64,000 nucleotides of DNA from a phage, in the sequence record OZ413489.1; one strand, 5' to 3'. The notes beneath the pieces were generated by a model. The model had not been told where the DNA came from. It worked only from the letters and a program-made list of their open reading frames with translations, and did no database searches. Below, one piece after another: positions 2,822 to 39,522 of this stretch. Position numbers and translations under genes: made by a program. The number at the start of each line of letters is the position of its first letter. Positions within the stretch are counted from its first letter, which is position 1.

Positions 2822-2850
2822 TTGCCAATCTTAATTAGATGTGGTACAAT
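2822..2850 (+). promoter_or_regulatory. sigma70-like promoter, TTGCCA-17-TGgTACAAT
   Basis: -35 2822-2827, 17-nt spacer, TG-extended -10 2845-2850; upstream of portal gene. Confidence 0.45.
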
Positions 2851-2867
2851 AAAGTAATTGGAGATAC

Positions 2868-2896
2868 TAGCCCTCTGACGAGGGCTATTTTGTTAT
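2868..2896 (+). promoter_or_regulatory. 5' leader stem-loop (terminator-like) upstream of portal gene
   Basis: TAGCCCTC-TGAC-GAGGGCTA then TTTTGTTAT, between promoter and GTG start of portal. Confidence 0.35.
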
Positions 2897-2918
2897 ACTG
2901 TTTTGAGGGGTAAAGCTT

Positions 2919-4475
2919 GTGTCCAAAAAGAACCGCAGGAAACACAACGCCACAGCCAAAACTGTGAATAAATCTGGGAACGCAGGCGCACCAACTCATA
3001 ATGTTCGTATGAGTGAGATCGGTTCTGGCGCACTTTCCCAAATTATGGCAGAATCGCAATCTATGATGGTTGAGGAATTGCGTTGGCCTCAGCTGATTGC
3101 CACAGTGGAGACTATGAAATGTGATTCCACAGTTGCTACTGCCTTAGATACAAAATATGTTTTCATCACGAAAGCATTCAATGATTTTAAGATCCTTTAT
3201 AATGTTAAAAGTGAAGACTCTAAGAAAGCTGCCGAGCTTATAGAGTATTCTTTGCGTAATTTGGCAAACCAACAAACTCTTCGAGATATTGCAAGAAGCG
3301 CAGCTACCTTTAACGAGTATGGTTTTTCACTGTTTGAGAAAGTATACCGCAGAGAGAAAGAAGGTAAATATGCCGGGATGCTTCTTATCGATAAAATTGC
3401 ATTCCGACCTCAGGCCAGCCTGTCCAGATCAGAGCCGTTTGTTTTTGATAAGAATAGCAGAACACTGACAGGTATTTATCAGTCACCTAATGCATTTCTA
3501 AACACTCAGAATGCACGCTGGGCTGGACCTCTTGCTGCAATGCCTTCAAAAAGCTTTAATGAGCCTGAAATTTTCATCCCTGCTAAAAAGCTTATGCTCA
3601 TGACCCTGTCAGGAACAGAATCTAACCCTGCAGGTGTGTCACCGATGATAGGTTGCTACAGATCTTTCCGTGAGAAAGTTCTGATTGAAAACCTTGAGGT
3701 TGTTGGCTGTTCCAAAGACCTTGGTGGTGTGCTTGAGCTGAAAATTCCTTCCAATATTTTGAACAAGGCCAGCATTGACCCGAATTCAATGGAAGGGAGA
3801 ATGGTTGCAGATCTTATGCTTGACGCAGCAAACGCCCATAGTGGTGAGCAAAGTTTCTTTATACTTCCGTCTGATAGAGATAAGTCTGGTAAAGAGCTTT
3901 ACTCCATGACCCTGAAGGGGGTTGACGGTATGGGTAAGCAGTATTCCACTAAAGATTTGATTGATGCCCGTAAGAAGGCGATTCTTGACCGTTTCGGTGC
4001 TGGCTTTATTAACCTCGGTAACGATAACGTTGGATCCTTCTCTCTGTCTGAGTCAAAACAGTCTATCCATGGTCATTTTGTTCAGCGTGATATAGATATT
4101 ATCACTGAAGCCTTCAATAAGGATCTTATTCCACAGCTTCTGGCATTGAATGGTATCATCCTTGAAGATGATGATATGCCTAAACTGAAACCTGGTCTGA
4201 TTGAAGAAGTGGATATGGAGAGCTTCTCCAAGTTTGTCCAGAGGATCGGTGCTGTAGGTTACTTGCCAAAAACTCCTGCAGTAATTAATAAGATTCTTGA
4301 AGTAGGCGGGTTTGATGAAAGATTTGACGAGGACATGGATCAGGAAGAGCTGATGAAGCTCTTGGGCCAGGACATCAGTAGAGCTGGTGATGGAATGGCT
4401 GCAGGATCCACTGGCAACGGCACTTCTAAGATATCATCAACCAGAGATAATTCCATATCCAACATGGAAAATTAA
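2919..4475 (+). CDS. portal protein
   Basis: 518 aa, GTG start with GAGGGG RBS; immediately after terminase; size and position typical of portal. Confidence 0.65.
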   Translation: MSKKNRRKHNATAKTVNKSGNAGAPTHNVRMSEIGSGALSQIMAESQSMMVEELRWPQLIATVETMKCDSTVATALDTKYVFITKAFNDFKILYNVKSEDSKKAAELIEYSLRNLANQQTLRDIARSAATFNEYGFSLFEKVYRREKEGKYAGMLLIDKIAFRPQASLSRSEPFVFDKNSRTLTGIYQSPNAFLNTQNARWAGPLAAMPSKSFNEPEIFIPAKKLMLMTLSGTESNPAGVSPMIGCYRSFREKVLIENLEVVGCSKDLGGVLELKIPSNILNKASIDPNSMEGRMVADLMLDAANAHSGEQSFFILPSDRDKSGKELYSMTLKGVDGMGKQYSTKDLIDARKKAILDRFGAGFINLGNDNVGSFSLSESKQSIHGHFVQRDIDIITEAFNKDLIPQLLALNGIILEDDDMPKLKPGLIEEVDMESFSKFVQRIGAVGYLPKTPAVINKILEVGGFDERFDEDMDQEELMKLLGQDISRAGDGMAAGSTGNGTSKISSTRDNSISNMEN

Positions 4476-4542
4476 AAATTATCAACACAGGTGGTTGCAA
4501 AACCTCCTTTGGCGTGATAAAATAATCCACATGGGGAATAAG

Positions 4543-4962
4543 ATGCCACAGGAAGAAATGATTTCCTACGAAATCATCTACGAGCCTGACACTAAAGATG
4601 CTCACGGTGAGTGGATGAGTAAAGACACCATCAAAAAGGCTAAAGATAACTGGGACGCAGCATACGCTGCAGGCCTAGTTTCTGAAAACCTTTTCCACTT
4701 GACCTCTACAGATGCTTTCACTATTGAAAAGACGTGGATTCAAGAAGAGTTTGATGTTGTAGTAATTGGCACTGAGCAGGTCATCAAGGCTGGCTCTTGG
4801 GTTGCTAAAGTTAAATACAATAATCCTGAATTATGGGAAGCTAAGAAGGCTGGCATTGTTGGTGGCCTAAGCATTCAGGCAACAGGTAATGTTGATGAAG
4901 AAACTGGTGAAATTACCAACGTAAACTTCGGGATCAGTGTTGTAGAAGAGGGCAATGAATAA
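4543..4962 (+). CDS. head morphogenesis protein (function unknown)
   Basis: Track ORF 4387-4962 overlaps portal; ATG 4543 with GGGGA RBS chosen as start (139 aa); lies between portal and scaffold. Confidence 0.4.
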   Translation: MPQEEMISYEIIYEPDTKDAHGEWMSKDTIKKAKDNWDAAYAAGLVSENLFHLTSTDAFTIEKTWIQEEFDVVVIGTEQVIKAGSWVAKVKYNNPELWEAKKAGIVGGLSIQATGNVDEETGEITNVNFGISVVEEGNE

Positions 4963-5939
4963 TGTCTGAAAAAACGATTACTATTAAAGAGAAGGGGATT
5001 GCCCTGTGCCATAAGGCGCAAGGCTATAGCGCTAACAACAGACCTGTATCTCTTTTGATGAAGAGTGATCTTAAGCCTGAGCAGTTAACAGACGATATTG
5101 TTAAGGCACTTCGCCAAGTTACTGTGGAGCTTAGCTTTGAAGAATACCTGCGTCGTTTCTTCGATATGTGGTATGATGATGCTAAAGCACTTGCACACAT
5201 GCTTGGTTTTGAGATTGAAGAGGAGGCTTGGGCTAAAGAGCATCCTGATTGGGAATGGGCGCAAGCTGACGCAGAGTCTTGTATTGCATGGCTGGAAGAG
5301 CGTTGTGATAACGTGACCATTCATAAGGCTGCAAAAGAAGGCAAGCAGCTTAGTGTGGTAGATCAGTACAGCCTGTTAAAAACACAACAGATTTTTGAAC
5401 AAGTAACCGCTGATCTCTTCGATAAAGAAGGGAACCTGATCAAGGCGGTACAGGAACCTGCTGAGGTGGATAAAACTACCGAGGTGGATGATGTTGCAAA
5501 ATCCGCAAATACCGAGGAGAATCCGGTGGACGTAACCAAAACTAAAGAGTATCTGGATCTGCTGAAGCAAGTAGAAGAGCTGAAAGCAACCCAGAGTAAA
5601 GCTGAAGAAATCATCAAGGCCCAGGTTGAAGTTGAAAAAGCTAAAATGCTGACTAAGGCTCAAGCTTTAAGCTTTGTTGGTGAAGAAGATCACGCAACCC
5701 TGGTTGACTTCATGCTGGAAAAAGCTAACGAACCTATCGTAGCTATGCTGGAGAAAGCTCAAGCAAAAATTGAAGAGCTGGAAGCAGAGGTGCATAAAAC
5801 TAAAGAAGAGTTTGCCACCACTGAACATGGTAATGATGGCGAACCTGTTGTGGATGATATTGCGAAATCCGCAGAAGAAATTCTTGCTGAAAACGTTGCA
5901 AAAGCACTTGCTCGTGCACGTGCAGAATCTAACAAATAA
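4962..5939 (+). CDS. capsid scaffolding protein
   Basis: 325 aa, acidic, Ala/Glu/Lys-rich coiled-coil character with internal repeats; just upstream of major capsid gene; TAATG coupling. Confidence 0.55.
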   Translation: MSEKTITIKEKGIALCHKAQGYSANNRPVSLLMKSDLKPEQLTDDIVKALRQVTVELSFEEYLRRFFDMWYDDAKALAHMLGFEIEEEAWAKEHPDWEWAQADAESCIAWLEERCDNVTIHKAAKEGKQLSVVDQYSLLKTQQIFEQVTADLFDKEGNLIKAVQEPAEVDKTTEVDDVAKSANTEENPVDVTKTKEYLDLLKQVEELKATQSKAEEIIKAQVEVEKAKMLTKAQALSFVGEEDHATLVDFMLEKANEPIVAMLEKAQAKIEELEAEVHKTKEEFATTEHGNDGEPVVDDIAKSAEEILAENVAKALARARAESNK

Positions 5940-5959
5940 GACATTAACGGGGGAAATAA

Positions 5960-6349
5960 ATGATTACCGCTCAATATTCTGATATCGTGCTCGGCAAAGT
6001 TGATTCTAGCGATGCTGGCTACAATTTTAAAGAGATGGAAATTACACTGACAGAGCACCACCATGCGGGTACTGTTGTAACAAAAACTGGCACTATCGCT
6101 AACGATGATGGCTCAGACGTTTATGGTGTTCTTGTAGACCGAGCTTTGGTAAAAGATGCAGGAAAAGTTCATCTTGCTGAGCCTCTGCAAACAGGTCAGA
6201 AATATAAACTAGTTGTCGCAGTTCACGGTGTTACCTTTGCAAAAGATAAGCTGCTGGGGTCTAACGGTGAAGCAGCTAAGCAGGCTGTTCTTGAAAAGCT
6301 GGAAGCTCTGGGTAACAAAGTTCACGTCCAGACTCTTGGTGAAGAGTAA
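5960..6349 (+). CDS. small head protein (possible decoration or auxiliary capsid protein)
   Basis: 129 aa; GGGGGAAATAAATG RBS; between scaffold and major capsid genes. Confidence 0.35.
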   Translation: MITAQYSDIVLGKVDSSDAGYNFKEMEITLTEHHHAGTVVTKTGTIANDDGSDVYGVLVDRALVKDAGKVHLAEPLQTGQKYKLVVAVHGVTFAKDKLLGSNGEAAKQAVLEKLEALGNKVHVQTLGEE

Positions 6350-6397
6350 GTCCTAAATTGTTCGGGAAAATATTTAAGTTTTACTTTGGAGAAATAA

Positions 6398-7405
6398 ATG
6401 ATTACTCGTAAAGATGAATTTGGCATTGTTGATTTAGGTGCTACTCTGGACCTTGTTCCACGTCAATTCCGCCTGATTACTGGTATGGATCTGTTCGAAA
6501 CCCGTCTCGGCACCTCAACAATTGCTCAGATTGAGCGTGTTGATGAAGTTGTAACCGACATTCCGGCACGCCGTCGTGGTGGTGAGCGTAACTACGTTGG
6601 TAGTGAACGTGCTCAGGTTAAAAACCTGAACATCCCGTTCTTCCCTCTGGACAAAGGCATCACTGCCGCAGATGTTCAGAACTTCCGTCGTTACTTCACT
6701 CCTGATGCTCCGAAAACTGTTCAGGACGTAGTAACCCGCGTTGTTCGCCGTATCCGTGTTTCTCATGAAGCACTGCGTGAGAAAGCGCTGTTCCAGGCTA
6801 TTCTGGGTAAATCCTATGCACCTGGTGACACCACCTGTCAGTATGATTACTACACTCTGTGGGGTGTGTCTCAGAAGTCTGTTGAGATCGACCCTGCAAA
6901 AGCAGATCAGGATCCTATGGAGGTTCTGGAAGAAGCTCGTCTGCACATCGCACTGCAAGCTGGTGATAACGCAGCTGGCTATCGCATTGTAGCTCTGTGC
7001 TCACCGGAGTTCTTCAGTGCTGTTACTCATCACCCGCTGGTAGAACTGGCATACACCTATTACGGCTCTGCTCAGGAACCTCTGCGTCGCCGTCTGGGTG
7101 CTGGCGGTCAAGACAGCGTATACCGTGTGTTTGAGCATAAAGGTATCACCTTTATCGAAGATATCTCTGGCAATATTCCTAAGAAAGAAGCTCGCATTCT
7201 GCCGATGGGTATTGATCAGATGTTCCAGCTGCACTTTGCTCCGGCAGACGATGTTAACGAAGCAAACACTCCAGCACAGGAACTGTACATGTGGTATAAA
7301 CACTCTGCATACCTGCGTGAAGAGAAGATTGAATCTGAAACTTCCATGCTGGCAGTTAACACCCGTCCAGAGCTGGTTGTTAAAGCAACTCTGAAAGGTG
7401 AATAA
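6398..7405 (+). CDS. major capsid protein
   Basis: 335 aa; GGAGA RBS; biased codon use typical of a highly expressed gene; followed by a strong intrinsic terminator; position after scaffold. Confidence 0.6.
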   Translation: MITRKDEFGIVDLGATLDLVPRQFRLITGMDLFETRLGTSTIAQIERVDEVVTDIPARRRGGERNYVGSERAQVKNLNIPFFPLDKGITAADVQNFRRYFTPDAPKTVQDVVTRVVRRIRVSHEALREKALFQAILGKSYAPGDTTCQYDYYTLWGVSQKSVEIDPAKADQDPMEVLEEARLHIALQAGDNAAGYRIVALCSPEFFSAVTHHPLVELAYTYYGSAQEPLRRRLGAGGQDSVYRVFEHKGITFIEDISGNIPKKEARILPMGIDQMFQLHFAPADDVNEANTPAQELYMWYKHSAYLREEKIESETSMLAVNTRPELVVKATLKGE

Positions 7406-7429
7406 TCACTAAGGTGATTCATCCCATAT

Positions 7430-7462
7430 GGGGAGGGGGTTCTCCCCCTCCCCTTTTTATTT
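7430..7462 (+). terminator. rho-independent terminator
   Basis: GGGGAGGGGG-TTCT-CCCCCTCCCC then TTTTTATTTATT. Confidence 0.75.
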
Positions 7463-7486
7463 ATTAGGGTTTAACAGGAGTGTCCC

Positions 7487-8332
7487 GTGAAGAGAGCCGT
7501 ATATCCAGTTGAGTATGATCCTCTATTAAGAGTTTTCAACAATCAGTTAAGTTTTTATCAATTTTTAGCACAATATAATCCAGAAATCAATGTTGGTTTA
7601 TCAGCCCTGCTGCCACCAACAGAGTTCGTTATTGGCAGTGTTCACTATCCATGCAGAACGATTGTAGACTTCTTCGAGAAGATTGCAAAACACACAGGCC
7701 TGCCAATTGATACTGGTATTTCAACTATCCGTATGGGTGTTATTCTTCTGTTCTTCACAGAGAACCTTGATGAAAGCACTTTAACACTGCAAAGCGGGGA
7801 TGTCAATATTACACTCACTCCGTCAGTGTTTAAAGAGGTAGATGCTGCTTTCAAAGTTTCCGTGGCAGAGGGCCATCTGTGGGACCCTGAAGGTATGCCT
7901 AAAAAAGTGACCATAAACGATGAGCAATGCAACATTGTTTATGAAGAAGATACCCAAACTTTCACCATCGAGTGGCCTAAGAAACGTTCTCAGGTTGTAA
8001 ATCTTGGGCTGGTTTCTACAGTAGCTCCACTGCCTGAACCAGAGCCGGAGCCACCTGTAGGTCCTACTGAACCAGGTGGTGGCGGTGAAGAATCCCCAGA
8101 TCCGGCTGCACCGGGAGGCACTGAGCAGGATCCTGAACAGGCACAAGAATCAAGATCTTCTCGCAGTGATGTTGATGCCATACTGCAGCAGGCCGCAGCT
8201 CTTAACAACGAAGATGACAAAAGTGGTTCAAAAGATGCACTCCAAACCTTCGCCAAAGAGCACGGTGTTATCTTAAGTAAGGCAAAAACTTTCCAAAATA
8301 TGATGAAAGATTTTGAGGCTGCACTGGCATAA
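7487..8332 (+). CDS. virion protein with Pro/Glu-rich linker (function unknown)
   Basis: 281 aa; GTG start with AGGAG RBS; low-complexity PLPEPEPEPPVGPTEPGGGGEESPDPAAPGG segment. Confidence 0.4.
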   Translation: MKRAVYPVEYDPLLRVFNNQLSFYQFLAQYNPEINVGLSALLPPTEFVIGSVHYPCRTIVDFFEKIAKHTGLPIDTGISTIRMGVILLFFTENLDESTLTLQSGDVNITLTPSVFKEVDAAFKVSVAEGHLWDPEGMPKKVTINDEQCNIVYEEDTQTFTIEWPKKRSQVVNLGLVSTVAPLPEPEPEPPVGPTEPGGGGEESPDPAAPGGTEQDPEQAQESRSSRSDVDAILQQAAALNNEDDKSGSKDALQTFAKEHGVILSKAKTFQNMMKDFEAALA

Positions 8333-8342
8333 TTTTGTTAAG

Positions 8343-8377
8343 GCCCCTTCCAAATCAGGAATGGGGCTTTATTTTTA
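8343..8377 (+). terminator. rho-independent terminator
   Basis: GCCCCTTCC...GGAATGGGGC stem then TTTATTTTT. Confidence 0.6.
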
Positions 8378-8391
8378 CGAGGTATTTTCAA

Positions 8392-9012
8392 ATGGCATGG
8401 TATGAAGATGAAGAGATTATCCAGTCACCGCCTAACCATGATGGTGTAGTCGATACCCCAGAAGAACCACCAAAAGAAGATCCTGTACCTCCGGAACCTG
8501 ATCCAGACCAACCTCTTATTAATATTATGAGGTTGTTGCTTGGCAATGTTGATGAGGAAACCCTCCCTGATGAGGTAATTAAAACATTCCTTGACATGGA
8601 GAAGTTGAAACTAAATTATCCGGCAGATCCTGATAAGCTACCTCTACTTAAGTACAATGTGCTTGTGCAGCTGGTGCGGTGGCTGATGATGCAGGAAGTG
8701 TCCAGCGGTAATGCAAGTATAACTTCCCGTCTGGAAAAAATAGGTGATGAGACCATAGAGATTCGTGGTGGATCTTCCTACGCCCAATGGAAGGATTTCC
8801 TTGATTGGCTGCTGGCACACCCAGACTATGTAGATTCTGAGCTAGATGCTTACAGCAGAATGATTATCATTGGTGGTGTTCGTGTAGACGAAGGAATTCG
8901 GGTTAAATTTAATGAAAACAGCAACGGACCGTTCGATGTCCAGGGGATTACACCTATCAGCGGTCTAAATAACCAACCTCCTCGCCACCCAAGACGCAAA
9001 CGCAGTTTTTAA
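8392..9012 (+). CDS. hypothetical structural protein
   Basis: Track ORF 8335-9012 trimmed to in-frame ATG 8392 (MAWYEDEE...) because the upstream part overlaps the terminator; Pro-rich acidic N-terminus. Confidence 0.4.
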   Translation: MAWYEDEEIIQSPPNHDGVVDTPEEPPKEDPVPPEPDPDQPLINIMRLLLGNVDEETLPDEVIKTFLDMEKLKLNYPADPDKLPLLKYNVLVQLVRWLMMQEVSSGNASITSRLEKIGDETIEIRGGSSYAQWKDFLDWLLAHPDYVDSELDAYSRMIIIGGVRVDEGIRVKFNENSNGPFDVQGITPISGLNNQPPRHPRRKRSF

Positions 9013-9018
9013 AAATTG

Positions 9019-9047
9019 TTGCTTTTGATGTATCTTTGTGGTAAAAT
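9019..9047 (+). promoter_or_regulatory. sigma70-like promoter, TTGCTT-17-TGgTAAAAT
   Basis: -35 9019-9024, -10 9042-9047 preceded by TGG. Confidence 0.45.
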
Positions 9048-9065
9048 ACATTAGTGAGGGATATA

Positions 9066-9530
9066 ATGCTAAAGGTTAAATGTCAAACAAGGTTCAACCT
9101 AAAGCGTTTAGATCGCTTCTACAAAGAACTTGTGAGACTTGAAAGTAAAACAATAACCTACGGCTTTTATGACGAACCTCACCCGTCAGGCTTAAATATG
9201 GCAACATTGGCAGCCATTCACAACTTCGGTTGGAACGGGCTGCCTGTTCGCAATTTCATGGAGACAGCTTTTGCATTTCACAGCACTCAACTACAGACCT
9301 TGACAGAAAAATTGTTGAGAGCTATGGCTAGAGGATCAAGTGCAGAGGCTATTCTTAAGCAGATGGGGGACACAGGGGCCAAAGCTATCCAGTTTGTTAT
9401 TGAGGCTGGTCAGTTTAGTAACCCTACTGTTAGTGAGCAGTGGGCACAAGAGAAGGGCTTCAACGAGGCTATGCGGCATTACGATGTGCTGCTGGAATCT
9501 GCAACCTTTAAAATTGGACAGCAAAAATAA
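9066..9530 (+). CDS. hypothetical head-tail joining region protein
   Basis: Track ORF 9054-9530; ATG 9066 with GAGGGA RBS preferred; 154 aa. Confidence 0.4.
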   Translation: MLKVKCQTRFNLKRLDRFYKELVRLESKTITYGFYDEPHPSGLNMATLAAIHNFGWNGLPVRNFMETAFAFHSTQLQTLTEKLLRAMARGSSAEAILKQMGDTGAKAIQFVIEAGQFSNPTVSEQWAQEKGFNEAMRHYDVLLESATFKIGQQK

Positions 9531-9539
9531 GGGGGTTGA

Positions 9540-9965
9540 GTGGCAGCAGGTTATAAGCTGATAGGAAAGAACAGGCTAATACCCCGTAAAACATTCAAAG
9601 GTCGCCACAGAGTGTATAACAAAACAGTTGGTGGTCCTTTTGCTAACGAGGGGTTAGAATTTGAGTATGAAGAGTTTGATGTCTTAGAGTGTGTTGTGCA
9701 GCCGTTGACAGGAAGGGCAGCTAAAGATTACTCCTCTCAAATAAATCCAGAAGGTGACAGACAGTACGAGGCTTTTACAGTCTACTCCTCAACCAAGTTG
9801 TATAGTCCAGATGAAGGAACATATGCAATGGCTGATCAAATTCAGCTGCCTGACATCCGTGGTGACTTGAAATGGTTTACCGTTTTAAAATGCGATGCAT
9901 ATGTTACCTCTGGTGGTGGGAGATATAGATTTTTTGTGGTAGAAGAGCCTGAAGGAGAAGACTGA
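9540..9965 (+). CDS. hypothetical head-tail joining region protein
   Basis: 141 aa; GTG start with GGGGG RBS. Confidence 0.4.
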   Translation: MAAGYKLIGKNRLIPRKTFKGRHRVYNKTVGGPFANEGLEFEYEEFDVLECVVQPLTGRAAKDYSSQINPEGDRQYEAFTVYSSTKLYSPDEGTYAMADQIQLPDIRGDLKWFTVLKCDAYVTSGGGRYRFFVVEEPEGED

Positions 9966-10516
9966 TGGAAGCTTTCGAAAAAGTTTTTTCTGATCTTGAA
10001 ACAACCATTGCTAAGCTTGTCAAGGTTGCCACAGGAAGAACTGTAGTTTTGGCAGAAAGCTCTACCATACCGAAGCCGGAAGGTGAGTTTGTGCTTTTAC
10101 AAACCTTGGCGATCAATCCAACCACTTGGGAAGATAATGAGTTTCAAGACGCGGAGGGTAATGCCTACGTCACCCACAGTTACACTGTTACTTATCTGTT
10201 AACAGCTTATCGTGGCAGGGCATATGCTGCACTTAGCAGAGTATTGCAAGCAATAAACCTTCCGATGTTTTATGACAAGTATTTCCCTCTGGGATCGTGC
10301 TTTGCCTACTCTAACAATTCAACAATCTCACCTCAAAGAGTGCCGTTGAATAAGCAGACGTATGAAAATAGAGCCACTGTGATGCTGACATTTAACGTAA
10401 GGTTTGTTGAAACAGACATTGGGGCTTTTGAGGATCTTCAGGGAATTAAGGCTGAAATAACCACACACTTTCCTTCACCCAATTCTGGTAAAGCGGTTAC
10501 AGACAGTGGTCAGTAA
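9965..10516 (+). CDS. hypothetical head-tail joining region protein
   Basis: 183 aa; ATG overlaps upstream stop (TGATG). Confidence 0.4.
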   Translation: MEAFEKVFSDLETTIAKLVKVATGRTVVLAESSTIPKPEGEFVLLQTLAINPTTWEDNEFQDAEGNAYVTHSYTVTYLLTAYRGRAYAALSRVLQAINLPMFYDKYFPLGSCFAYSNNSTISPQRVPLNKQTYENRATVMLTFNVRFVETDIGAFEDLQGIKAEITTHFPSPNSGKAVTDSGQ

Positions 10517-10588
10517 TCGTTATAATTGTGTAGTGTAATGATTACACTGCGTGTTTGATATCCGTGCACAGATATTAAGAGGAAACAA

Positions 10589-11965: not shown

Positions 11966-11975
11966 GGAAGCCTAG

Positions 11976-12449
11976 ATGGAAACTCAAATTTTAACTCCTT
12001 ATGCGTATGACCCTAAAAAGGTCAAACTGTATCTGATGCAGCAGCGTGTCACTGGCTTCGCTGCTGACACCAAGATTGTTGTTTCAAGAAACGAAGACAA
12101 CATTTACCCTCACGTCGGTGTGGATGGTGAAATGTCTGCGGCTCTGTCTCGTAACCAATCTGGTGTTATGACCGTGTCTTTGCAGAACACTTCTGTATGG
12201 AACGCTTACCTTTCTGACTGGCAGAAACAGGCATCGATTACTGGTCTGGTATTCTTCCCAGTTCTGCTGGAAGGTAGCCAGGGTCCTGGTATTTCCACAA
12301 TTGGTTGGATCCAGAAACAGCCTGACCTGACTTACGGAACCGAAGTAGGTCAACTGGACTGGGATATCGGTATTCTGGATGCATGGCTCAACCGTGATAA
12401 CATCACTGGTGCTCTTACTGGCCTCGCAGGTCTTGCAGGTATTATCTAA
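11976..12449 (+). CDS. tail tube protein (by gene order and size)
   Basis: 157 aa; AAGGAAG RBS; followed by terminator, promoter and chaperone. Confidence 0.5.
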   Translation: METQILTPYAYDPKKVKLYLMQQRVTGFAADTKIVVSRNEDNIYPHVGVDGEMSAALSRNQSGVMTVSLQNTSVWNAYLSDWQKQASITGLVFFPVLLEGSQGPGISTIGWIQKQPDLTYGTEVGQLDWDIGILDAWLNRDNITGALTGLAGLAGII

Positions 12450-12467
12450 GGGCACACTTTAGCATAA

Positions 12468-12496
12468 GCCTCACCTTCGGGTGGGGCTTTTTGCTT
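12468..12496 (+). terminator. rho-independent terminator
   Basis: GCCTCACC-TTCG-GGTGGGGC then TTTTTGCTTTT. Confidence 0.7.
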
Positions 12497-12539
12497 TTAT
12501 GGTTTTGACACACGTTCTTGAATTGCTTGGAAGGTTAAA

Positions 12540-12568
12540 TTGACAATGCACCATAATCATGGTAAAAT
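12540..12568 (+). promoter_or_regulatory. sigma70-like promoter, TTGACA-17-TGgTAAAAT
   Basis: -35 12540-12545, -10 12563-12568 preceded by TGG. Confidence 0.5.
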
Positions 12569-12611
12569 ACACAAATATGGTGCACAACATGACTAATAAG
12601 GATGCTATAAA

Positions 12612-13345: not shown

Positions 13346-13350
13346 TCTAA

Positions 13351-13388
13351 GGGCCGGATTCCTTTTCTGGGATCTGGCCCTTTTTATT
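13351..13388 (+). terminator. rho-independent terminator
   Basis: 12-bp stem GGGCCGGATTCC/GGGATCTGGCCC then TTTTTATT. Confidence 0.7.
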
Positions 13389-15736: not shown

Positions 15737-15748
15737 TAAACTGTGCAA

Positions 15749-15773
15749 GGGGGCTCCGGCCCCCTTTATTTTA
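15749..15773 (+). terminator. rho-independent terminator
   Basis: GGGGGC-TCCG-GCCCCC then TTTATTTTA. Confidence 0.7.
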
Positions 15774-15779
15774 TCGGTG

Positions 15780-15808
15780 TTGTAAAAACGGCTATTTTAT
15801 GATACAAT
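15780..15808 (+). promoter_or_regulatory. sigma70-like promoter, TTGTAA-17-TGaTACAAT
   Basis: -35 15780-15785, -10 15803-15808 preceded by TGA. Confidence 0.45.
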
Positions 15809-27613: not shown

Positions 27614-27620
27614 AGTATTG

Positions 27621-27648
27621 CCCTCGCTTCGGCGGGGGTTTTTTGTTT
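27621..27648 (+). terminator. rho-independent terminator
   Basis: CCCTCGC-TTCG-GCGGGGG then TTTTTTGTTTG. Confidence 0.7.
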
Positions 27649-27651: not shown

Positions 27652-27680
27652 TTGCGTATTAACTTAAAATCTGGTAAAAT
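27652..27680 (+). promoter_or_regulatory. sigma70-like promoter, TTGCGT-17-TGgTAAAAT
   Basis: -35 27652-27657, -10 27675-27680 preceded by TGG. Confidence 0.45.
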
Positions 27681-33119: not shown

Positions 33120-33127
33120 CCTTTAAA

Positions 33128-33153
33128 GCCCCGCTTCGGCGGGGTTTATTTTT
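33128..33153 (+). terminator. rho-independent terminator
   Basis: GCCCCGC-TTCG-GCGGGG then TTTATTTTT. Confidence 0.7.
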
Positions 33154-33162
33154 ATGCTCAGA

Positions 33163-33191
33163 TTGACTATTGTTACAAAATTTGGTAAAAT
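33163..33191 (+). promoter_or_regulatory. sigma70-like promoter, TTGACT-17-TGgTAAAAT
   Basis: -35 33163-33168, -10 33186-33191 preceded by TGG. Confidence 0.5.
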
Positions 33192-33224
33192 ACCTTGTAG
33201 AGATTTTCATACCGGAGGAGTGAC

Positions 33225-34715
33225 GTGGCTAAGTATGGATTGACAGAGGCTGGTTTCGTTATACCAACCCTAAATGACCTAATCGTTGAAACTAAGCAAA
33301 GCCTGATCCGTGCTTTTGGCGAAAACTTCAACGTACAGAGTAACTCCGTTGCAGATAAGCTGACCACTATCTTCAACGAGCGAGAGTATCAACTTATTCT
33401 TATGGCAGCATCTGTATACGCATCACAGACGCTGTATGGGGCAGAAGGTATTTACCTAGATGAGCTTCTTGGAAGACAGGGTATTTACCGAAGAGGCCGT
33501 TCTAAATCATCAGGTACCTGCCAGTTGACAATCAACACAACTGTGCCGTACAATATGATTTATGATTCCAAAACTTATACACTGGATAGTGGCAACTTTG
33601 TTCTTAGCAATGATGTGCAGGTGGCAGGGAATCTTATTGCCCACAGAATAAATGCTCCAGACCTAAGGATTGGTAAATACAACTTTCAAATCACCAACCA
33701 GACAGATGGAAGTATCAAAACAAAAAGTCTGGTTTTAACAGATAAGTCTCTGGACTCTTCTGATCTGCCAAGCTTTTACGGAGAGATTAAGCAGTTCATT
33801 GTCGATAATACAACCCTGTTGAACGACGATTTGATTCAGATCGATATGTTGACAGGAACGTTGTGGATAGGGTACAATTCGAATCTTGATCAAGTTGGAC
33901 TTAATAGTAGGGTAGATTTCAGAGTATCCCCGATTGTAGGGGAAAGAACTATCACACTGGATGTTATCGCTAACGAGGCTGGTGAGCTGTCAAGAGAAGC
34001 AGAAACCGTGACAACAATGTCACCTACTCCTAGTGGATTTATCAAGCTTACCAACCGAGAAAGATTCAATGAGGGCAGGGATGTTGAGAAAGACTCAGAG
34101 TATCGCTTAAGAGCTTCCAGCACAAAACAGTTAACATCTAAGGCTACCCGTCCTGCAATCCTTAGCGCTGTAAGCGAGGTGAAAGGTGTTGAGAAAGTGA
34201 GAGTGTTCTCCAACAACACCGATAAAACTGATGCTAAAGGTATACCTCCTTACAAGTTCCAAGTGGTTGTGTTTGGTGGTGCAACGGAAGACATTTGCCA
34301 AGCACTTTACCAAACTATAGCCTGTACGAACAGGACTTATGGTAATATTTTCTACGATGTCACTACATCTGATGGTCAAACTGAAAGAATTTATTACTCC
34401 AAGGCAAATACCTACCGCCTAGATGTAAGAATTACCTACTCCGGTGCCGCACTTTCCACAACCGAAAAAGATGCCATTGTAGAGGCTCTTTTGCAGGTTG
34501 TTAACGGACTGGATGTTGCAGATACGTTGTATAATATCCAATTGGTCGGCGCTGCATCTGCTGCTGTATCAATAGGCAGATTTAATAGACTGGTAATTCA
34601 AGTTAAACCAGTAGGAGCTTCTGATGAAGCTTACACTACAAACGATATTGTTGCGAACATGACCGAGGTGTTTGACCTCGACGAAAGTAATATAACTTTC
34701 CAACAAACTATTTAA
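33225..34715 (+). CDS. baseplate J-like protein
   Basis: 496 aa; GTG start with GGAGGAG RBS; N-terminus (YGLTEAGF...ADKLTTIF...ASQTLYGAEGIYLDELLGRQGIYRRGRSKSSG) matches the Baseplate_J family pattern as recalled. Confidence 0.55.
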   Translation: MAKYGLTEAGFVIPTLNDLIVETKQSLIRAFGENFNVQSNSVADKLTTIFNEREYQLILMAASVYASQTLYGAEGIYLDELLGRQGIYRRGRSKSSGTCQLTINTTVPYNMIYDSKTYTLDSGNFVLSNDVQVAGNLIAHRINAPDLRIGKYNFQITNQTDGSIKTKSLVLTDKSLDSSDLPSFYGEIKQFIVDNTTLLNDDLIQIDMLTGTLWIGYNSNLDQVGLNSRVDFRVSPIVGERTITLDVIANEAGELSREAETVTTMSPTPSGFIKLTNRERFNEGRDVEKDSEYRLRASSTKQLTSKATRPAILSAVSEVKGVEKVRVFSNNTDKTDAKGIPPYKFQVVVFGGATEDICQALYQTIACTNRTYGNIFYDVTTSDGQTERIYYSKANTYRLDVRITYSGAALSTTEKDAIVEALLQVVNGLDVADTLYNIQLVGAASAAVSIGRFNRLVIQVKPVGASDEAYTTNDIVANMTEVFDLDESNITFQQTI

Positions 34716-34726
34716 GGCGGCGAGAT

Positions 34727-35413
34727 ATGGCAGAGATTAAGTCGGATGTTAACCACATCCACACTCTGCCAGATTTTGTTCAGGGAGGTCTTGACTACCT
34801 GCCTGGAGATTTTCTGGCTGAGAAGGTTAATTTGGTCACATTCTTAACCGTGTACCTTAAAAGGTTGGAGGATGTTGATAAGATGCTGGTAGGTTTGGCT
34901 GAAGGAAGATTGCTTAACAATGCCAGCGGAAGATACCTTGACGAAGTTGGTAATCAACTTGGTATTCTTAGGAATGGACTTTCAGATGCTGATTTTCGTG
35001 CCACACTAATTATTCAGCAGGCCGCAGCATCAAGGGGCGGGACTCGCGAAGATGTCATCTCCACCTTGCGACAATTGTTCGGAAGAAACAATTTCGATAC
35101 GTGGAAAGGAGACAACTTCAGGTTTGACATAAATATTAGAAAAACTTGCTTTGACATATTGCAGTCTATCGATCAGATCTTAGATATGCTACCATTGCCT
35201 TGTCATTTGCGTCTTACAGAATCGCAAGGGCAAGCTTTTGGTTTTGAAGGGGACCATACAGCTCTTGGCTTCGGATCAGTGTGGGAAGAAAACCAATTCG
35301 GAGTTGGTGGGCTGGCTACTTTGCTGTATGTTCCTGACGTAAGACCTGATTGGGACACCACAACCATTTATTGTGAAAGTATTACAGTAAACGCAACTAG
35401 ACAGGAGGGTTAA
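34727..35413 (+). CDS. baseplate protein (gpI-like, tentative)
   Basis: 228 aa; follows J-like gene as in P2/Mu-type baseplate modules. Confidence 0.4.
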   Translation: MAEIKSDVNHIHTLPDFVQGGLDYLPGDFLAEKVNLVTFLTVYLKRLEDVDKMLVGLAEGRLLNNASGRYLDEVGNQLGILRNGLSDADFRATLIIQQAAASRGGTREDVISTLRQLFGRNNFDTWKGDNFRFDINIRKTCFDILQSIDQILDMLPLPCHLRLTESQGQAFGFEGDHTALGFGSVWEENQFGVGGLATLLYVPDVRPDWDTTTIYCESITVNATRQEG

Positions 35414-37485
35414 TGGCAACAGCTATTTTTAAACCTTACCGTGATTACTCTACAATGGCTGCACGGTTTCATTACCGCACAGTTCAGGATACTGCAGTTC
35501 CTGGTAGGGATTATAATCATGTTGAGGGTGATGTAACTATCCCAATTGGGGCAACCAGTATTGAGATCCCAGTGGAAATTGTTGACAAATTACCCAACAG
35601 GTTGCCAAGAAGCTTCTTTATGGAGTTTTCATCAAAATCTCAAGGGGTGATGATTGGAACACAAAGGGCGAAATGTACAATAGTTTCAGATGAGAATCTT
35701 GACAGGATATCTTGGGATACTGTCGAGGAGAGAATGTTTCACCCAAGATATTGGGTTACATCTACCCAGCAGACTGAAAGCACCTGTATTGTTGCAGATA
35801 ATAACTGTTGTATTAACCGTTTAGTGTCAAGAACATATGGAGGTATGGCTGGGTGCATTTGGGAAACAGTTGACAAGTATGACCATTTCGGTATTGGGTT
35901 TGATGATCATTATGAGATGAGAAATACCAAGCTTTGGTTCAGAATGTCAATAACCAACGCCAGCAACTTCTCCACTCCTGAAAAGATGATTATGACTGTA
36001 GACCTTGTTGATGGCACAATCATCTATGTTCCTTTAGCTCAATATGCTGTCAGCATCTCAGAGGATAAGAATGTTGCAGAAATTCATATTGATTTCGAGG
36101 ACTGCGTCGGGATGGACCAGAACAACAATATGATGGGTGTTGATCCTCGACAGGTGAGAAGGATTTTAATACCGCTTATGCCTAAAGATTGGGTAAGCAA
36201 TAGCACAAACCCAAGAACGGAAAATGTAGAGTGTGAGTTGCGCCTAGATCTGCTTCAGCCAGACACAGGCTGGAAAATGATGCAACTTAACAATATTCAG
36301 GTGAAAGAACACGACGTTGGGATCTGCACAGCATATGACGATATGTGGAACGTGTCTCCTTTAAGGGTGTTGAACAATATCAAGCGTCTGGGCTATACCG
36401 GAACCATAAACCATTATGTTGGTATGAGTCATTATTATGACTACACATGGTCAGGAACTCAATGGTCTATAAACAGAACAGGAGCGCTAAACGCTGCAGC
36501 TTATAAATGGCATGATGATTTTATGTACAATGCCAAACGACATAACTTCGACGTTATGCAATCTGTAAGTTTTGAGCTTTTCAGCGATGCCTGCCCGTTG
36601 GAATGGACCCAAAGAGACTGGAACGATAACTACGCTAAAACAGGGTATACACCTTGTAGCTACCTCCTGTCTCCAACCATTGAAGAGGGTATGAATTTCC
36701 TTACTGCAGTATTTAAGAATTTTGCATCAGCCGCTATGAGAAACAACCTGCCAGTGATTATGCAGGTTGGTGAACCGTGGTGGTGGTACAATACCGATAC
36801 TCGTAGACCTTGTATTTATGATTACCCTACAAAGCAGGCGTTTTATGATGAGACAGGTGAGTATGCATTAGATATTGGGACTATTGACGATCCTAAAACT
36901 GGCGGTGTTTACGACAAGTATGTAGCATTTTGTCGTGGTAAGCTTGGCGCTCGTATTGCGGCTATTTCAAAGGCAATAAAGGCACACGCTGCATCAGCTC
37001 AGATGACAGCTCTACTGTTTTTCCCAACCATTATGGAAACCGAGCTTACGCAAAAGCTTAACCTTGCTGACCAATATAAAAAGGAAGCAGGTGCTCTTGA
37101 TTTCTTCTGCACCGAGTGCTACGATTGGGTGATGCAGGGAGGTATTGAAAAGGCAAAAGAGTCTGTAAACATACCTATCGTTAAGTTAGGTTGGCAACCG
37201 TCTGAAATACAATACCTTGCAGGGTTCGTTCCTAGTAAAGAGCTTGCTCCGGTATATGGTTACGACCCAACCAGGAATTACCAAGAATTTTTATGGAGAT
37301 GTATTTGCGGAAACATGGCAACTATAGAGTATAGATATCCTGAGGTAAAACAGTATGTGTGGGCATACCCGCAAGTAATGTCTGACAGCATCACTGTTAC
37401 CGCTAGAGATTCTACCGTGCTTCATATGGGGCAGGTTGCTCTGAAAGGGTATGTAGAAGATGTTGTCCCGCCAGACTTCTCATAA
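35413..37485 (+). CDS. tail-associated protein with Calx-beta-like N-terminus and enzyme-like body
   Basis: 690 aa; GRDYNHVEGDVTIPIGATSIEIPVEIVD resembles a Calx-beta fold; remainder Trp/Tyr-rich. Confidence 0.35.
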   Translation: MATAIFKPYRDYSTMAARFHYRTVQDTAVPGRDYNHVEGDVTIPIGATSIEIPVEIVDKLPNRLPRSFFMEFSSKSQGVMIGTQRAKCTIVSDENLDRISWDTVEERMFHPRYWVTSTQQTESTCIVADNNCCINRLVSRTYGGMAGCIWETVDKYDHFGIGFDDHYEMRNTKLWFRMSITNASNFSTPEKMIMTVDLVDGTIIYVPLAQYAVSISEDKNVAEIHIDFEDCVGMDQNNNMMGVDPRQVRRILIPLMPKDWVSNSTNPRTENVECELRLDLLQPDTGWKMMQLNNIQVKEHDVGICTAYDDMWNVSPLRVLNNIKRLGYTGTINHYVGMSHYYDYTWSGTQWSINRTGALNAAAYKWHDDFMYNAKRHNFDVMQSVSFELFSDACPLEWTQRDWNDNYAKTGYTPCSYLLSPTIEEGMNFLTAVFKNFASAAMRNNLPVIMQVGEPWWWYNTDTRRPCIYDYPTKQAFYDETGEYALDIGTIDDPKTGGVYDKYVAFCRGKLGARIAAISKAIKAHAASAQMTALLFFPTIMETELTQKLNLADQYKKEAGALDFFCTECYDWVMQGGIEKAKESVNIPIVKLGWQPSEIQYLAGFVPSKELAPVYGYDPTRNYQEFLWRCICGNMATIEYRYPEVKQYVWAYPQVMSDSITVTARDSTVLHMGQVALKGYVEDVVPPDFS

Positions 37486-37497
37486 TCAGGAGATAAA

Positions 37498-38538
37498 ATG
37501 TCAAAACCTAGTTTTCCATTAGAGATTTGGGCAGAGGAGGATCAGGTTCTGCCTAACACCCACAGACAGAACAGGCTACGCCCGATTGATGATTTGTGGA
37601 GAAAAGGTTGGGATCTTGGTCAAAAGCCCTCATGTGAAGAACTTAACTATATTTTCAATATGCTCGGGACTTGGGCAAAATACATCGCTGACGAGCAGAT
37701 CCCCGCTCAAGAAGGCCGTTATCTGGTACGTGATAATAACTTGAGTGATCTTTTGAACATTCCTGTTGCCCGTAGAAACCTTGGGATTATTACTAAGGAA
37801 GAGGCAGACGCCAGGTATGTAAAAGTTACAGGTGATACAATGACAGGCCCATTGGGTTTGCAACGTATCAACTTTAAAGCTGCCGAGTCAGATAAGGCTT
37901 GGATAGAGACAACTATTGGCCCAGATAAGACAACTCTCGACTTTGGGTTAAGTGATAATACCGGGTCGTTTGATGATGGTGGTACATCTACAGTGGATGC
38001 GTTCCGTTGGAGATTCCAGCCAACTCAGCCGGATATTAATCCAGAGTTCACTTTGATGTACCTTAACGCGATCACGGCTAACCGTGCGCTGTTGAAAGTG
38101 GTAGGCAATGTTGAAGTTGTCGATAACATGAGGTGCAATAACCTTACTATCAGCAATACAGCGACATTCACCAACTGTAATGTGGCTAGTCAGTTGACGG
38201 CTGGGTCAGTGTATGTTAATGGTGGTGCAAGTTGTGACAGTATGGTTGTAAGAAGCCAGCACTGTGTTGTCGGTAACAGAAATGTGGTTCGCTCTGTGAA
38301 CGGAGTGACGGCTAACGGTAACGGTGATGTAACGATCACTATCCCGCAGACAGGTGTGCAAGACATCAGAATCGGTGCAAGACTTGTTGACGGCGTTTCC
38401 GAATCTCCAATTCGCAACGGCTACGTTGTCACAGGCTGGCATTTCGGTGACAAAAAAGAGATGCGTGGTTCAACCTACTGGGCAGGACCTTTACAAAAAC
38501 TTGTAAACGGTCAATGGATCACTGTTAATTATGCATAG
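37498..38538 (+). CDS. tail fibre protein (P2 H-like C-terminus), copy 1
   Basis: 346 aa; AGGAGA RBS; C-terminus ...LQKLVNGQWITVNYA resembles the P2 H fibre C-terminus (recollection); followed by Tfa gene. Confidence 0.55.
   Translation: MSKPSFPLEIWAEEDQVLPNTHRQNRLRPIDDLWRKGWDLGQKPSCEELNYIFNMLGTWAKYIADEQIPAQEGRYLVRDNNLSDLLNIPVARRNLGIITKEEADARYVKVTGDTMTGPLGLQRINFKAAESDKAWIETTIGPDKTTLDFGLSDNTGSFDDGGTSTVDAFRWRFQPTQPDINPEFTLMYLNAITANRALLKVVGNVEVVDNMRCNNLTISNTATFTNCNVASQLTAGSVYVNGGASCDSMVVRSQHCVVGNRNVVRSVNGVTANGNGDVTITIPQTGVQDIRIGARLVDGVSESPIRNGYVVTGWHFGDKKEMRGSTYWAGPLQKLVNGQWITVNYA
38494..38523 (+). repeat. 30-nt conserved segment at fibre 3' end (copy 1)
   Basis: CAAAAACTTGTAAACGGTCAATGGATCACT; 29/30 identical to 40552-40581. 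Confidence 0.6.
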
Positions 38539-38552
38539 ATCGGAGGACTAGC

Positions 38553-39137
38553 ATGAAAATACTTCAAGAGTTTAAACTTTACCAACCGGGATCTGGCGAA
38601 TACCACTCCAACAAGGAAACCAAGGAGCTGACCCCTCAAGAGGTTGAGGATTACACCGCATACACTGGGTATTTTTTACGTAATGATGATGGCGATTGGT
38701 ATGTGCAGTCACGAACATTACGACAAGAAAATCCGGGTTGTATCTTCCTACTTGTTGACGAGAAGGGAATTCTTAAGACATCTACAGAAGAACCTGATGC
38801 CTTATGGCCTGCTCCAGGTCTTCGTGTGGTTATCGCCAAAAAAGAAGAGGTACCAGAAAACATTATGCTTCACCACGACGCTTTGCGTTTAGTTGGTGAT
38901 GAATTTGTCACAGATAATGAATTCTTTGTTCAACAGGCAGAGGGTGTCATAGAGACAGAACTTGCTTGGGCTACTGCTAGAATTGGTGCCTATCAAGACA
39001 TGATTGACCTTGAATATGATCTTACTGATGACCAGAAACGTAACATCAGAGATTTGAAAATGTACAGGGTAAAACTTCTTGAAATAGATACATCTAAAGC
39101 CCCTGACATTTTCTTCCCGGAGCGACCTACCCTCTAA
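38553..39137 (+). CDS. tail fibre assembly protein (Tfa-like)
   Basis: 194 aa; C-terminal ELAWATARIGAYQDMIDLEYDLTDDQKRNIRDLKMYRVKLLEIDTSKAPDIFFPERP matches the Tfa C-terminal domain pattern. Confidence 0.55.
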   Translation: MKILQEFKLYQPGSGEYHSNKETKELTPQEVEDYTAYTGYFLRNDDGDWYVQSRTLRQENPGCIFLLVDEKGILKTSTEEPDALWPAPGLRVVIAKKEEVPENIMLHHDALRLVGDEFVTDNEFFVQQAEGVIETELAWATARIGAYQDMIDLEYDLTDDQKRNIRDLKMYRVKLLEIDTSKAPDIFFPERPTL

Positions 39138-39148
39138 GAGGAGGTGTT

Positions 39149-39463
39149 GTGGAGTTGGATTTGGCGGCATTGTACGGTATCTGCATGGGTACCGTTGTCC
39201 CGATCTGTGTATGGGCTTTCAACCAGTGGCACACCAAATGGAAAGGCATTTCCAAGAGGTTGGATGAACTGGAGAAAGACCTCATCTTAGTGAAAAACAG
39301 TATGGTTACAAAAGATAAACTTGATTCCGTTATCGAGACCCGGTTAAGCAAGCTAGAGGCCGATATTAACGACCTTAAGCAGGATGTCAGGACAGATGTC
39401 TCCGGCATCCGAGCTGATGTACAAAAGATTTTGCACATGCTCGTAGAGCATAGTAAAAGGTAA
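39149..39463 (+). CDS. small membrane-anchored coiled-coil protein
   Basis: 104 aa; GTG start with AGAGGAGG RBS; hydrophobic N-terminus AALYGICMGTVVPICVWAF then coiled coil. Confidence 0.3.
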   Translation: MELDLAALYGICMGTVVPICVWAFNQWHTKWKGISKRLDELEKDLILVKNSMVTKDKLDSVIETRLSKLEADINDLKQDVRTDVSGIRADVQKILHMLVEHSKR

Positions 39464-39472
39464 ACAAAGGTC

Positions 39473-39505
39473 AGAACGGAAAGGACTCCGTTCTTGCATT
39501 TTGTT
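39473..39505 (+). terminator. rho-independent terminator
   Basis: AGAACGGA-AAGGAC-TCCGTTCT then TGCATTTTGTT. Confidence 0.55.
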
Positions 39506-39522
39506 CTCTAAAGTGTTAAAAT
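39494..39522 (+). promoter_or_regulatory. sigma70-like promoter, TTGCAT-17-TGtTAAAAT
   Basis: -35 39494-39499 (overlaps terminator 3' end), -10 39517-39522 preceded by TGT. Confidence 0.4.

Follow-up and report, generated by a model that had tools for sequence, protein, structure and literature searches.

Putative TG-extended -10 promoters recur, and are conserved, in the structural gene block of an rV5-like Vequintavirus

The structural gene block of this phage contains eight copies of a sequence that combines a partial -35 element, a spacer of exactly 17 nt and a TG-extended -10 element, and these are probably internal promoters of the structural (late) block that would be read by host RNA polymerase with sigma-70. 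The window analysed here, a stretch of 64,000 nt, shares about 98% identity with rV5 and with other Vequintavirus genomes, and by this comparison is assigned to an rV5-like Vequintavirus, a phage of E. coli. A first-pass annotation had listed seven 29-nt sites; all seven lie at the positions and have the architecture that it described, and the same pattern has an eighth match that it lacked, in the portal-to-protease gap at 4495-4523 (Table 1). The plus-strand gene block occupies 2-48316 and is closed by the terminator at 48332-48353, which agrees with the late operon of roughly 48 kb that had been proposed.

Table 1. Putative promoters and terminators of the structural gene block, as predicted from sequence.
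Feature	Position	Strand	Context
Promoter TTGCCA-N17-(TGG)TACAAT	2822..2850	+	3 nt past terminase stop, upstream of portal gene (2919); rV5 P064
Intrinsic-terminator-like hairpin and T-run	2868..2887	+	downstream of 2822 promoter; Table S4D t064ABC
Promoter TTGCAA-N17-(TGA)TAAAAT	4495..4523	+	portal-to-prohead-protease gap; outside published rV5 lists; kept in five genera
Strong terminator	7430..7453	+	after major capsid gene; no promoter motif behind
Promoter TTGCTT-N17-(TGG)TAAAAT	9019..9047	+	5' of neck/tail-completion gene (9066); rV5 P056; kept in six genera
Terminator	12466..12489	+	after tail tube gene; 50 nt 5' of 12540 promoter
Promoter TTGACA-N17-(TGG)TAAAAT	12540..12568	+	5' of chaperone gene (12612); rV5 P051
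Terminator	13349..13382	+	before tape-measure gene; no promoter motif behind
Terminator	15747..15766	+	after tape-measure gene; first half of cassette kept in five genera
Promoter TTGTAA-N17-(TGA)TACAAT	15780..15808	+	5' of gene 15842; shares gap with rV5 P048
Terminator	27620..27639	+	adjoins 27652 promoter on upstream side
Promoter TTGCGT-N17-(TGG)TAAAAT	27652..27680	+	5' of tail fibre gene (27712); rV5 P040
Terminator	33126..33147	+	adjoins 33163 promoter upstream; cassette kept in five genera
Promoter TTGACT-N17-(TGG)TAAAAT	33163..33191	+	5' of baseplate wedge gene (33225); rV5 P036
Weak hairpin, poor T-run	39473..39494	+	abuts -35 of 39494 promoter
Promoter TTGCAT-N17-(TGT)TAAAAT	39494..39522	+	5' of short tail fibre gene (39550); rV5 P030
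Terminator	42639..42660	+	before last large tail fibre gene; no promoter motif behind
Terminator	48332..48353	+	closes plus-strand structural gene block

The occurrence of these sites is not random. The pattern TTGNNN-N14-TGN-TAMAAT matches eight times in the window, always on the plus strand, against a chance expectation of 0.17 (about 47-fold over), and eight matches were reached in none of 100 shuffles. The longer string said to be common to several sites was borne out too, TGGTAAAATA being present in four copies (9039, 12560, 27672 and 33183) where 0.14 are expected. Only the TG-extended class stands out in this way; a generic sigma-70 consensus, scanned between 20 and 40 kb, gave no enrichment (33 matches against 34.9 expected). 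Placement is equally distinctive, in that all eight sites are intergenic and lie 19-69 nt upstream of the start codon of a plus-strand structural gene, and each late-block gap of at least 86 nt contains one of them. The late block (1-48316) has 16 plus-strand TGNTANAAT sites, eight intergenic and eight intragenic, and a TTG exactly 14 nt upstream, which gives the 17-nt spacing, accompanies every one of the intergenic sites and none of the intragenic.

In composition the sites resemble the extended -10 class of E. coli sigma-70 promoters, a class with the consensus TRTGnTATAAT that accounts for about 20% of the promoters of that host. TGn lies one base upstream of the hexamer in 8/8 sites, the hexamer is TAAAAT or TACAAT in all of them (position 2 always being A and position 6 always T), and the base that follows it is always A. 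A purine occupies -16 in six of the eight, and bases -17 and -16 agree with the published extension, defined as T-17 R-16 T-15 G-14 (PMC7403470). The position of TG, the common purine at -16, the invariant A2 and T6 and a -35 element at 17 nt, which is optional in the E. coli class, are shared features; unlike that class, the sites here always have TA(A/C)AAT and never TATAAT, and are far more uniform. We considered, and rejected, an operator or inverted repeat shared by the sites around the -10 element: a 9-bp inverted repeat flanks the -10 of the 12540 site (12547-12555 and 12576-12584; p ~0.003), the other seven sites are at chance level, and no arm sequence is held in common.

The motif itself, and six of the seven sites first annotated, were already published in 2013, and to this extent our finding re-discovers a known bioinformatic prediction. 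Kropinski et al. (2013; Virol J 10:76, PMC3606486, Table S4C) found TggTAaAAtA independently, with MEME, in rV5, a phage of the same species group, and listed its occurrences as 'putative late promoters'; their entries P064, P056, P051, P040, P036 and P030, at homologous positions, are identical to six of the seven sites. The seventh, at 15780, shares a gap with P048 in a different register, and orthologous sequences support the register 15780-15808 over that published. The rV5 list lacks the 4495 site and includes P055, which is intragenic, has no TTG and is probably a false positive; nor does the paper point out the fixed -35 TTG of the whole class. What we add is the TTG at 17 nt in all intergenic sites, conservation across genera, two conserved terminator-promoter cassettes, and the contrast with other rV5 promoters.

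That contrast is marked. TGn is found in 8/8 late sites against 11/31 other rV5 promoters (p = 0.001), and T at position 3 of the -10 hexamer in 0/8 against 19/31 (p = 0.003); a full TTGACA with a variable -10 characterises the other rV5 promoters, where the late class has the partial -35 TTGnnn. The unusual uniformity of the late class could be caused by an extra specificity factor. The rest of the genome holds just one more full match, rV5 P074, located in the same transcription unit 5' of the tRNA genes. This additional member emerged from the position weight matrix scan of the genome that the first-pass annotation had suggested as a check, a scan that over-fits the spacer columns and was used solely for finding P074.

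When the gaps are compared with their orthologues in up to six genera, TGnTA(A/C)AAT is kept in 21/21 cases and TTG in 18/21, such that the -35 and extended -10 elements stand out as invariant blocks between flanks that have diverged; the three orthologous sites that lost TTG all retain the extended -10. An apparent fifth conserved site in the relatives (L006:39130, L008:37728, L009:22106 and L010:29357) was rejected on finding that it consists of the ribosome-binding site of a conserved membrane protein gene together with the start codon of that gene (ATG-TTA-AAA). In Phapecoctavirus, which represents a sister subfamily, the terminase-to-portal, portal-to-next and post-tape-measure gaps contain sigma-70 promoters of the TTGACA type, and the gap at the neck has one of the TTGCAT type. 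Since promoters of TTGACA type occupy these corresponding gaps, use of the host polymerase is indicated. The paper describing the Certrevirus CB7 reports early sigma-70 promoters only. Placement and orientation, the -35 TTG at 17 nt, the full extended -10 motif and this phylogenetic footprinting all argue that the sites form a promoter family, as originally proposed.

The association with terminators is less general than first thought. It had been claimed that most sites sit just after an intrinsic terminator; a clear hairpin and T-run precedes the sites at 12540, 15780, 27652 and 33163, and a weak one that at 39494, but the sites at 4495 and 9019 have none, and at 2822 the terminator (2868-2887) follows the -10. 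The terminator-promoter cassette describes four to five of the eight sites. Five genera conserve it at two positions, one following the tape-measure gene and the other preceding the baseplate-wedge gene. A transcript beginning at about 2857 would have the 2868-2887 hairpin at its very start; that the 2822 promoter runs directly into a terminator hairpin counts against its being read by host sigma-70.

Our reading of how the block may work is as follows. The TTG at -35 would be contacted by sigma region 4.2, the end of the 17-nt spacer, (T)RTGn, by region 3.0, and TA(A/C)AAT with the following A by region 2; transcription would start some 7 nt downstream of the -10, producing leaders of roughly 12-62 nt. 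About ten predicted intrinsic terminators would cut the structural block, and at four to five places a promoter would follow a terminator within 15-50 nt. Upstream transcripts would be attenuated at these cassettes and a fresh, defined dose of transcription begun for the next module, the modules being protease to capsid, neck to sheath to tube, chaperones with the tape measure, baseplate, and fibres. Initiation by the sigma-70 polymerase at these sites, their start points, promoter activity and 'late' timing are what we infer from the elements described above; a literature search on Vequintavirinae phages returned neither transcription-start maps nor RNA-seq nor in vitro transcription.

The first-pass annotation left two options for the recognition of these sites, host sigma-70 or a phage-modified polymerase. 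The latter would have a phage protein remodel sigma-70 region 4 or the beta-flap, shutting off TTGACA-dependent early and host promoters while extended -10 promoters remained active, and perhaps promoting terminator read-through as well. There are precedents in T4 AsiA, P23-45 gp39 and Xp10 P7, phage sigma-4 repressors that spare extended -10 promoters, of which gp39 and P7 also antiterminate (PMC7403470, PMC3950348, PMC3351154). The Thermus phage P23-45, and with it T4 AsiA and Xp10 P7, offers a close analogy, with host polymerase used for structural genes, extended -10 promoters (middle and late in P23-45) and many late-gene terminators. The late class here would suit such a switch in being uniformly extended -10 with a partial -35, unlike the other rV5 promoters, in keeping the extended -10 at the three orthologous sites that lost TTG, and in lying within a block with many terminators, some of them without a promoter after them. 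Yet promoters of the P23-45 type have no -35 element, while the sites here keep TTG at exactly 17 nt in 8/8 cases in the window and in 18/21 orthologues; there would be no selection for TTG if region 4 were displaced, and its conservation argues against displacement. Pfam was searched with 145 proteins of the rV5 genome type that are small or unknown, and the best 25 of the 42 families matched include no sigma-70 domain, AsiA, MotA or gp55/gp33, and within the same limit no gp39- or P7-like protein nor any other known appropriation family. One gp11-like protein (54279-55322, minus strand) has weak PHROG matches to 'decoy of host sigma70' and to Srd; it was rejected as an anti-sigma factor, having no Pfam match and a best PHROG annotated as HNH endonuclease. 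T4 Srd is linked to stimulation of RNase E and is not known to act in promoter switching. We consider selection of the late regulon by a modified polymerase unlikely, and somewhat less likely still the specific proposal that the uniform TRTGnTA(A/C)AAT-A class is a late regulon kept active, with terminator read-through, by an undiscovered small remodeller of sigma-70 region 4 or the beta-flap. Plain host sigma-70 is favoured because the -35 TTG is retained, because the best 25 of 42 Pfam families include no sigma or appropriation protein, and because the sister subfamily has TTGACA promoters in the corresponding gaps.

The rV5 authors hinted at a different comparison, likening their motif to T4 late promoters by the partial similarity of TAAAATA to TATAAATA (PMC3606486). 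On such an account TggTAaAAtA would be akin to TATAAATA and read by a divergent gp55-like phage sigma that makes no -35 contact; both kinds of site are A/T-rich -10-region motifs upstream of structural genes. We think this very improbable. T4 late promoters, which depend on gp55, gp33 and gp45, differ in sequence, TATAAATA being found in 0/8 sites and in three copies in the window, all on the minus strand and at chance level; the -35 TTG and TRTG are conserved here, and neither is used by a gp55-type factor. Homologues of gp55, gp33 and gp45 were not found by the rV5 authors (PMC3606486), the best 25 of 42 Pfam families for the 145 proteins include no sigma-like match, and canonical sigma-70 promoters stand at the same positions in the sister subfamily. 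T4 middle promoters were also rejected as a model: TTGCTT occurs in one of the eight sites, at the -35 position, and the best 25 of 42 Pfam families include neither MotA nor AsiA. The MotA box, (a/t)(a/t)(a/t)TGCTTtA, is centred at -30. Finally, the sites might be no promoters at all but have arisen by chance in AT-rich intergenic DNA, or be binding or processing sites of another kind, and the absence of enrichment among generic sigma-70-like matches between 20 and 40 kb, as well as the start-codon origin of the L006:39130 match and its orthologues, would be consistent with this. Such a reading is strongly disfavoured, and we give it very little credence, given the excess of the specific pattern on a single strand, the restriction of TTG co-occurrence to intergenic sites and the invariance of the blocks across genera whose flanks have diverged.

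Phages of the genus Vequintavirus find wide use in phage-therapy cocktails and in O157 typing, and are represented in the BASEL collection, but to our knowledge no map of their transcription programme has ever been made. The conservation across genera described here strengthens a published prediction and leaves the overall picture unchanged. A reliable map of promoters and terminators in the structural block would assist engineering, such as the insertion of reporters or the swapping of fibres with expression intact. Were a remodeller of the polymerase to exist after all, it would represent a switch resembling AsiA or gp39 in myoviruses of E. coli, Salmonella and Klebsiella, a large and common group for which no transcription regulator is yet known. 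Near-optimal sigma-70 promoters would be expected to be active from the onset of infection, which is an odd fit with 'late' structural genes. A promoter and terminator map of the block also frames the question of how the structural genes are delayed when their putative promoters resemble strong promoters of the host.

With nucleotides 1-25000 as the megablast query, 108 phage records match at 80% or greater coverage and 95-99% identity, including rV5 (DQ832317), HdK5 and the BASEL phage WalterGehring, all of the genus Vequintavirus (Vequintavirinae). A gene map taken from the annotation of these records places all structural genes on the plus strand, in a block that opens with spanins, a split terminase, portal, protease, scaffold, decoration and major capsid genes, continues through neck, sheath, tube, chaperone and tape-measure genes, and ends with baseplate genes and a long run of fibre genes, after which a terminator closes the block. 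This extent is consistent with the roughly 48-kb late operon supposed in the first-pass annotation. Non-coding DNA within it amounts to only ~2 kb, counting two non-coding stretches in the terminase large subunit gene; this gene has three exons, and the stretches belong to its introns rather than to intergenic DNA. The gene also holds an internal ORF, and the annotation of related records puts a homing endonuclease inside the split terminase gene.

The seven 29-nt promoter-like strings reported along this operon all lie exactly where the first-pass annotation placed them, and the pattern TTGNNN-N14-TGN-TAMAAT that they share matches eight times in the window, always on the plus strand, where 0.17 matches are expected; none of 100 shuffles reached eight. 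The further match lies at 4495. That several sites share a longer string also holds, since there are four copies of TGGTAAAATA where 0.14 would be expected. The key control is provided by TGNTANAAT: all eight of its intergenic plus-strand copies have TTG exactly 14 nt upstream, giving a 17-nt spacer, whereas none of the eight copies inside late genes does. Over the whole window this string is found 19 times on the plus strand versus twice on the minus strand, several plus-strand copies being intragenic. Every gap of at least 86 nt in the late block holds a site, while shorter gaps hold at most a hairpin. A scan of the whole genome (the window plus the rest of rV5) returned P074, named in the rV5 promoter tables, as the sole further full match.

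Predicted late promoters and other features, in window coordinates unless stated; published promoter names are from rV5 Table S4A-C (Kropinski et al. 2013, PMC3606486)
Feature	Position	Strand	rV5 promoter	Remark
Late site 2822	2822-2850	+	P064
Late site 4495	4495-4523	+		additional site; pattern match in portal/prohead protease gap
Late site 9019	9019-9047	+	P056
Late site 12540	12540-12568	+	P051
Late site 15780	15780-15808	+	P048	P048 shares the gap, register differs
Late site 27652	27652-27680	+	P040
Late site 33163	33163-33191	+	P036
Late site 39494	39494-39522	+	P030
Further full match	outside window, upstream of tRNA genes preceding it	same orientation and transcription unit	P074	TTGACA-N14-TGATAAAAT
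Structural gene block	2-48316	+
Terminator closing the block	48332-48353
Terminase introns	1113-1461; 1753-2032
ORF inside split terminase	1462-1752
Hairpin and T-run by 2822	2868-2887
Terminators lacking a promoter	7430; 13349; 42639
Inverted repeat	12547-12555; 12576-12584			TGCACCATA / TATGGTGCA
Gap upstream of tail sheath gene	10517-10588
Same gap, relatives	L006 19872-20000; L008 19882-20000; L010 15338-15449
Rejected match, relatives	L006:39130; L008:37728; L009:22106; L010:29357
Terminase-to-portal gap, Phapecoctavirus	L012 12591-12691
gp11-like protein gene	54279-55322	-

The finding is a re-discovery, six of the seven first-pass sites being already in Table S4C of the rV5 study, which reported 33 sigma-70-type promoters, 11 with an extended -10 (PMC3606486); site 4495 is missing from the published lists. 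The published P055 is intragenic and without TTG, and so probably spurious. When the other 31 rV5 promoters of Table S4A/B (PMC3606486) were scored by hand, TGn occupied the extended -10 position in 11, compared with 8/8 late sites (Fisher p 0.001), and T stood at -10 position 3 in 19/31 but in none of the eight (Fisher p 0.003). Only TTG is fixed in the -35 element of the late sites, whereas the other promoters almost always have full TTGACA. The late sites form an architectural class of their own.

The comparison covered the structural gene regions of five relatives with 52-59% identity in the tail sheath protein: Salmonella phage SEW_6S, Raoultella phage Ro1 (Mydovirus), Erwinia phage pEp_SNUABM_01 (Henunavirus), Pectobacterium phage POP17 (Certrevirus) and E. 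coli phage A5-4. Alignment of the portal-to-protease gap leaves invariant columns at cTTGCAAAA / GTGnTAAAATAA, and that of the gap upstream of the neck gene at TTGnTTTTG / GTGGTAAAATA, amid diverged flanks. Across four orthologous gaps TGnTA(A/C)AAT is retained in 21/21 cases and TTG at 17 nt in 18/21, the three exceptions being TTT. All five genera compared have terminator-promoter cassettes both downstream of the tape-measure gene and ahead of the baseplate-wedge gene, and the neck-promoter pattern recurs in 27 IMG/VR contigs, mostly of 84-153 kb with some short fragments. No counterparts of the 2822 and 12540 promoters were found in the other genera compared. A more distant phage, a Phapecoctavirus (Stephanstirmvirinae) with a 29% identical sheath, has TTGACA-N17/18-TAnnnT promoters in three corresponding gaps and a TTGCAT promoter in the neck gap, and the cassette after the tape-measure gene appears again. 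The promoter-family interpretation is supported: the sites are real, non-random and conserved, and were correctly read.

One conserved match to TTG-N14-TG(T/C)TAAAAT in four relatives was rejected as a promoter. It consists of the ribosome-binding site and start codon of a small membrane protein gene (ATG TTA AAA, or ATG CTA AAA in L009), and coding constraints can therefore create the promoter pattern. Separately, the other genera share a long, conserved gap ahead of the tail sheath gene. It lacks a promoter motif and holds a GC-rich hairpin that has no T-run and is bordered by GGTTATTGATAAGCAC ... GTGCTGGTCAATAAC; the gap may act as a structured leader or in RNA processing.

The proposal that most sites directly follow an intrinsic terminator survives only in part. 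A clear hairpin and T-run lie immediately upstream of 12540, 15780, 27652 and 33163, a weak hairpin adjoins 39494, and there is none at 4495 and 9019. Site 2822 shows the opposite order, its terminator lying ~10 nt past the predicted start, so that this promoter would fire into it. A folding energy of -21.6 kcal/mol (z = -2.5) was computed for the predicted leader, and we infer that the hairpin may both end terminase transcripts and cap the 5' end of the portal mRNA. In the Phapecoctavirus relative, too, the terminase-to-portal gap has a promoter and then a hairpin. Three other terminators have no promoter behind them, and the genes downstream must therefore rely on read-through. Site 12540, the nearest to consensus (TTGACA) and confined to Vequintavirus, has its -10 bracketed by a perfect 9-bp inverted repeat (shuffle p ~0.003; repeats at the remaining seven promoters are at chance level), which might serve as an operator or fold into a hairpin in read-through transcripts.

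The late sites agree in each element with what sigma-70 recognizes: they have their -35 TTG at optimal spacing, both invariant -10 bases, and a spacer end that fits the TRTG extension (as defined in PMC7403470), with a purine at -16 in 6/8. The phage has no RNA polymerase gene, and no sigma domain, AsiA, MotA or gp55/gp33 appeared among the best 25 of 42 Pfam families matched by 145 small or unknown proteins of this genome type. The simplest and most likely reading is that host sigma-70 holoenzyme would initiate at these sites. Promoters of this kind would be expected to work as soon as infection begins, which fits awkwardly with structural genes being late. A T4-late reading was rejected: TATAAATA occurs no more often than chance predicts and lies on the wrong strand, and the rV5 authors noted the lack of homologues of gp33, gp45 and gp55 (PMC3606486). 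The main rival is a switch that remodels sigma region 4 in the manner of AsiA, gp39 or P7, sparing extended -10 promoters and able to antiterminate; it would fit the uniform TG and the abundance of terminators, but the conserved -35 TTG speaks against it, as does the lack of a candidate factor among those 25 Pfam families.

The gp11-like protein, encoded by the first gene of a divergent early unit, is an 'anti-sigma factor' in the BASEL annotation and was called Srd-like in the rV5 paper (PMC3606486). Pfam gives no match to it. The top PHROG hit (2e-109) carries an HNH endonuclease annotation, and the Srd/decoy families match weakly (2e-14, 6.5e-9). Small rV5 proteins outside the window match a Macro domain (1e-5), T7 gene 1.1-like (3e-11), a ribosome hibernation factor (2e-12) and an HTH_36 regulator (2e-5), none of which is known to act in promoter choice.

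A literature search turned up neither transcription-start nor expression data for phages of this group, and the activity, start points and timing of the late sites are predicted from sequence and conservation. The late sites are an ordinary kind of element already in the literature. Read by host sigma-70 holoenzyme, they and the terminators would together give each successive structural module its own transcript level.
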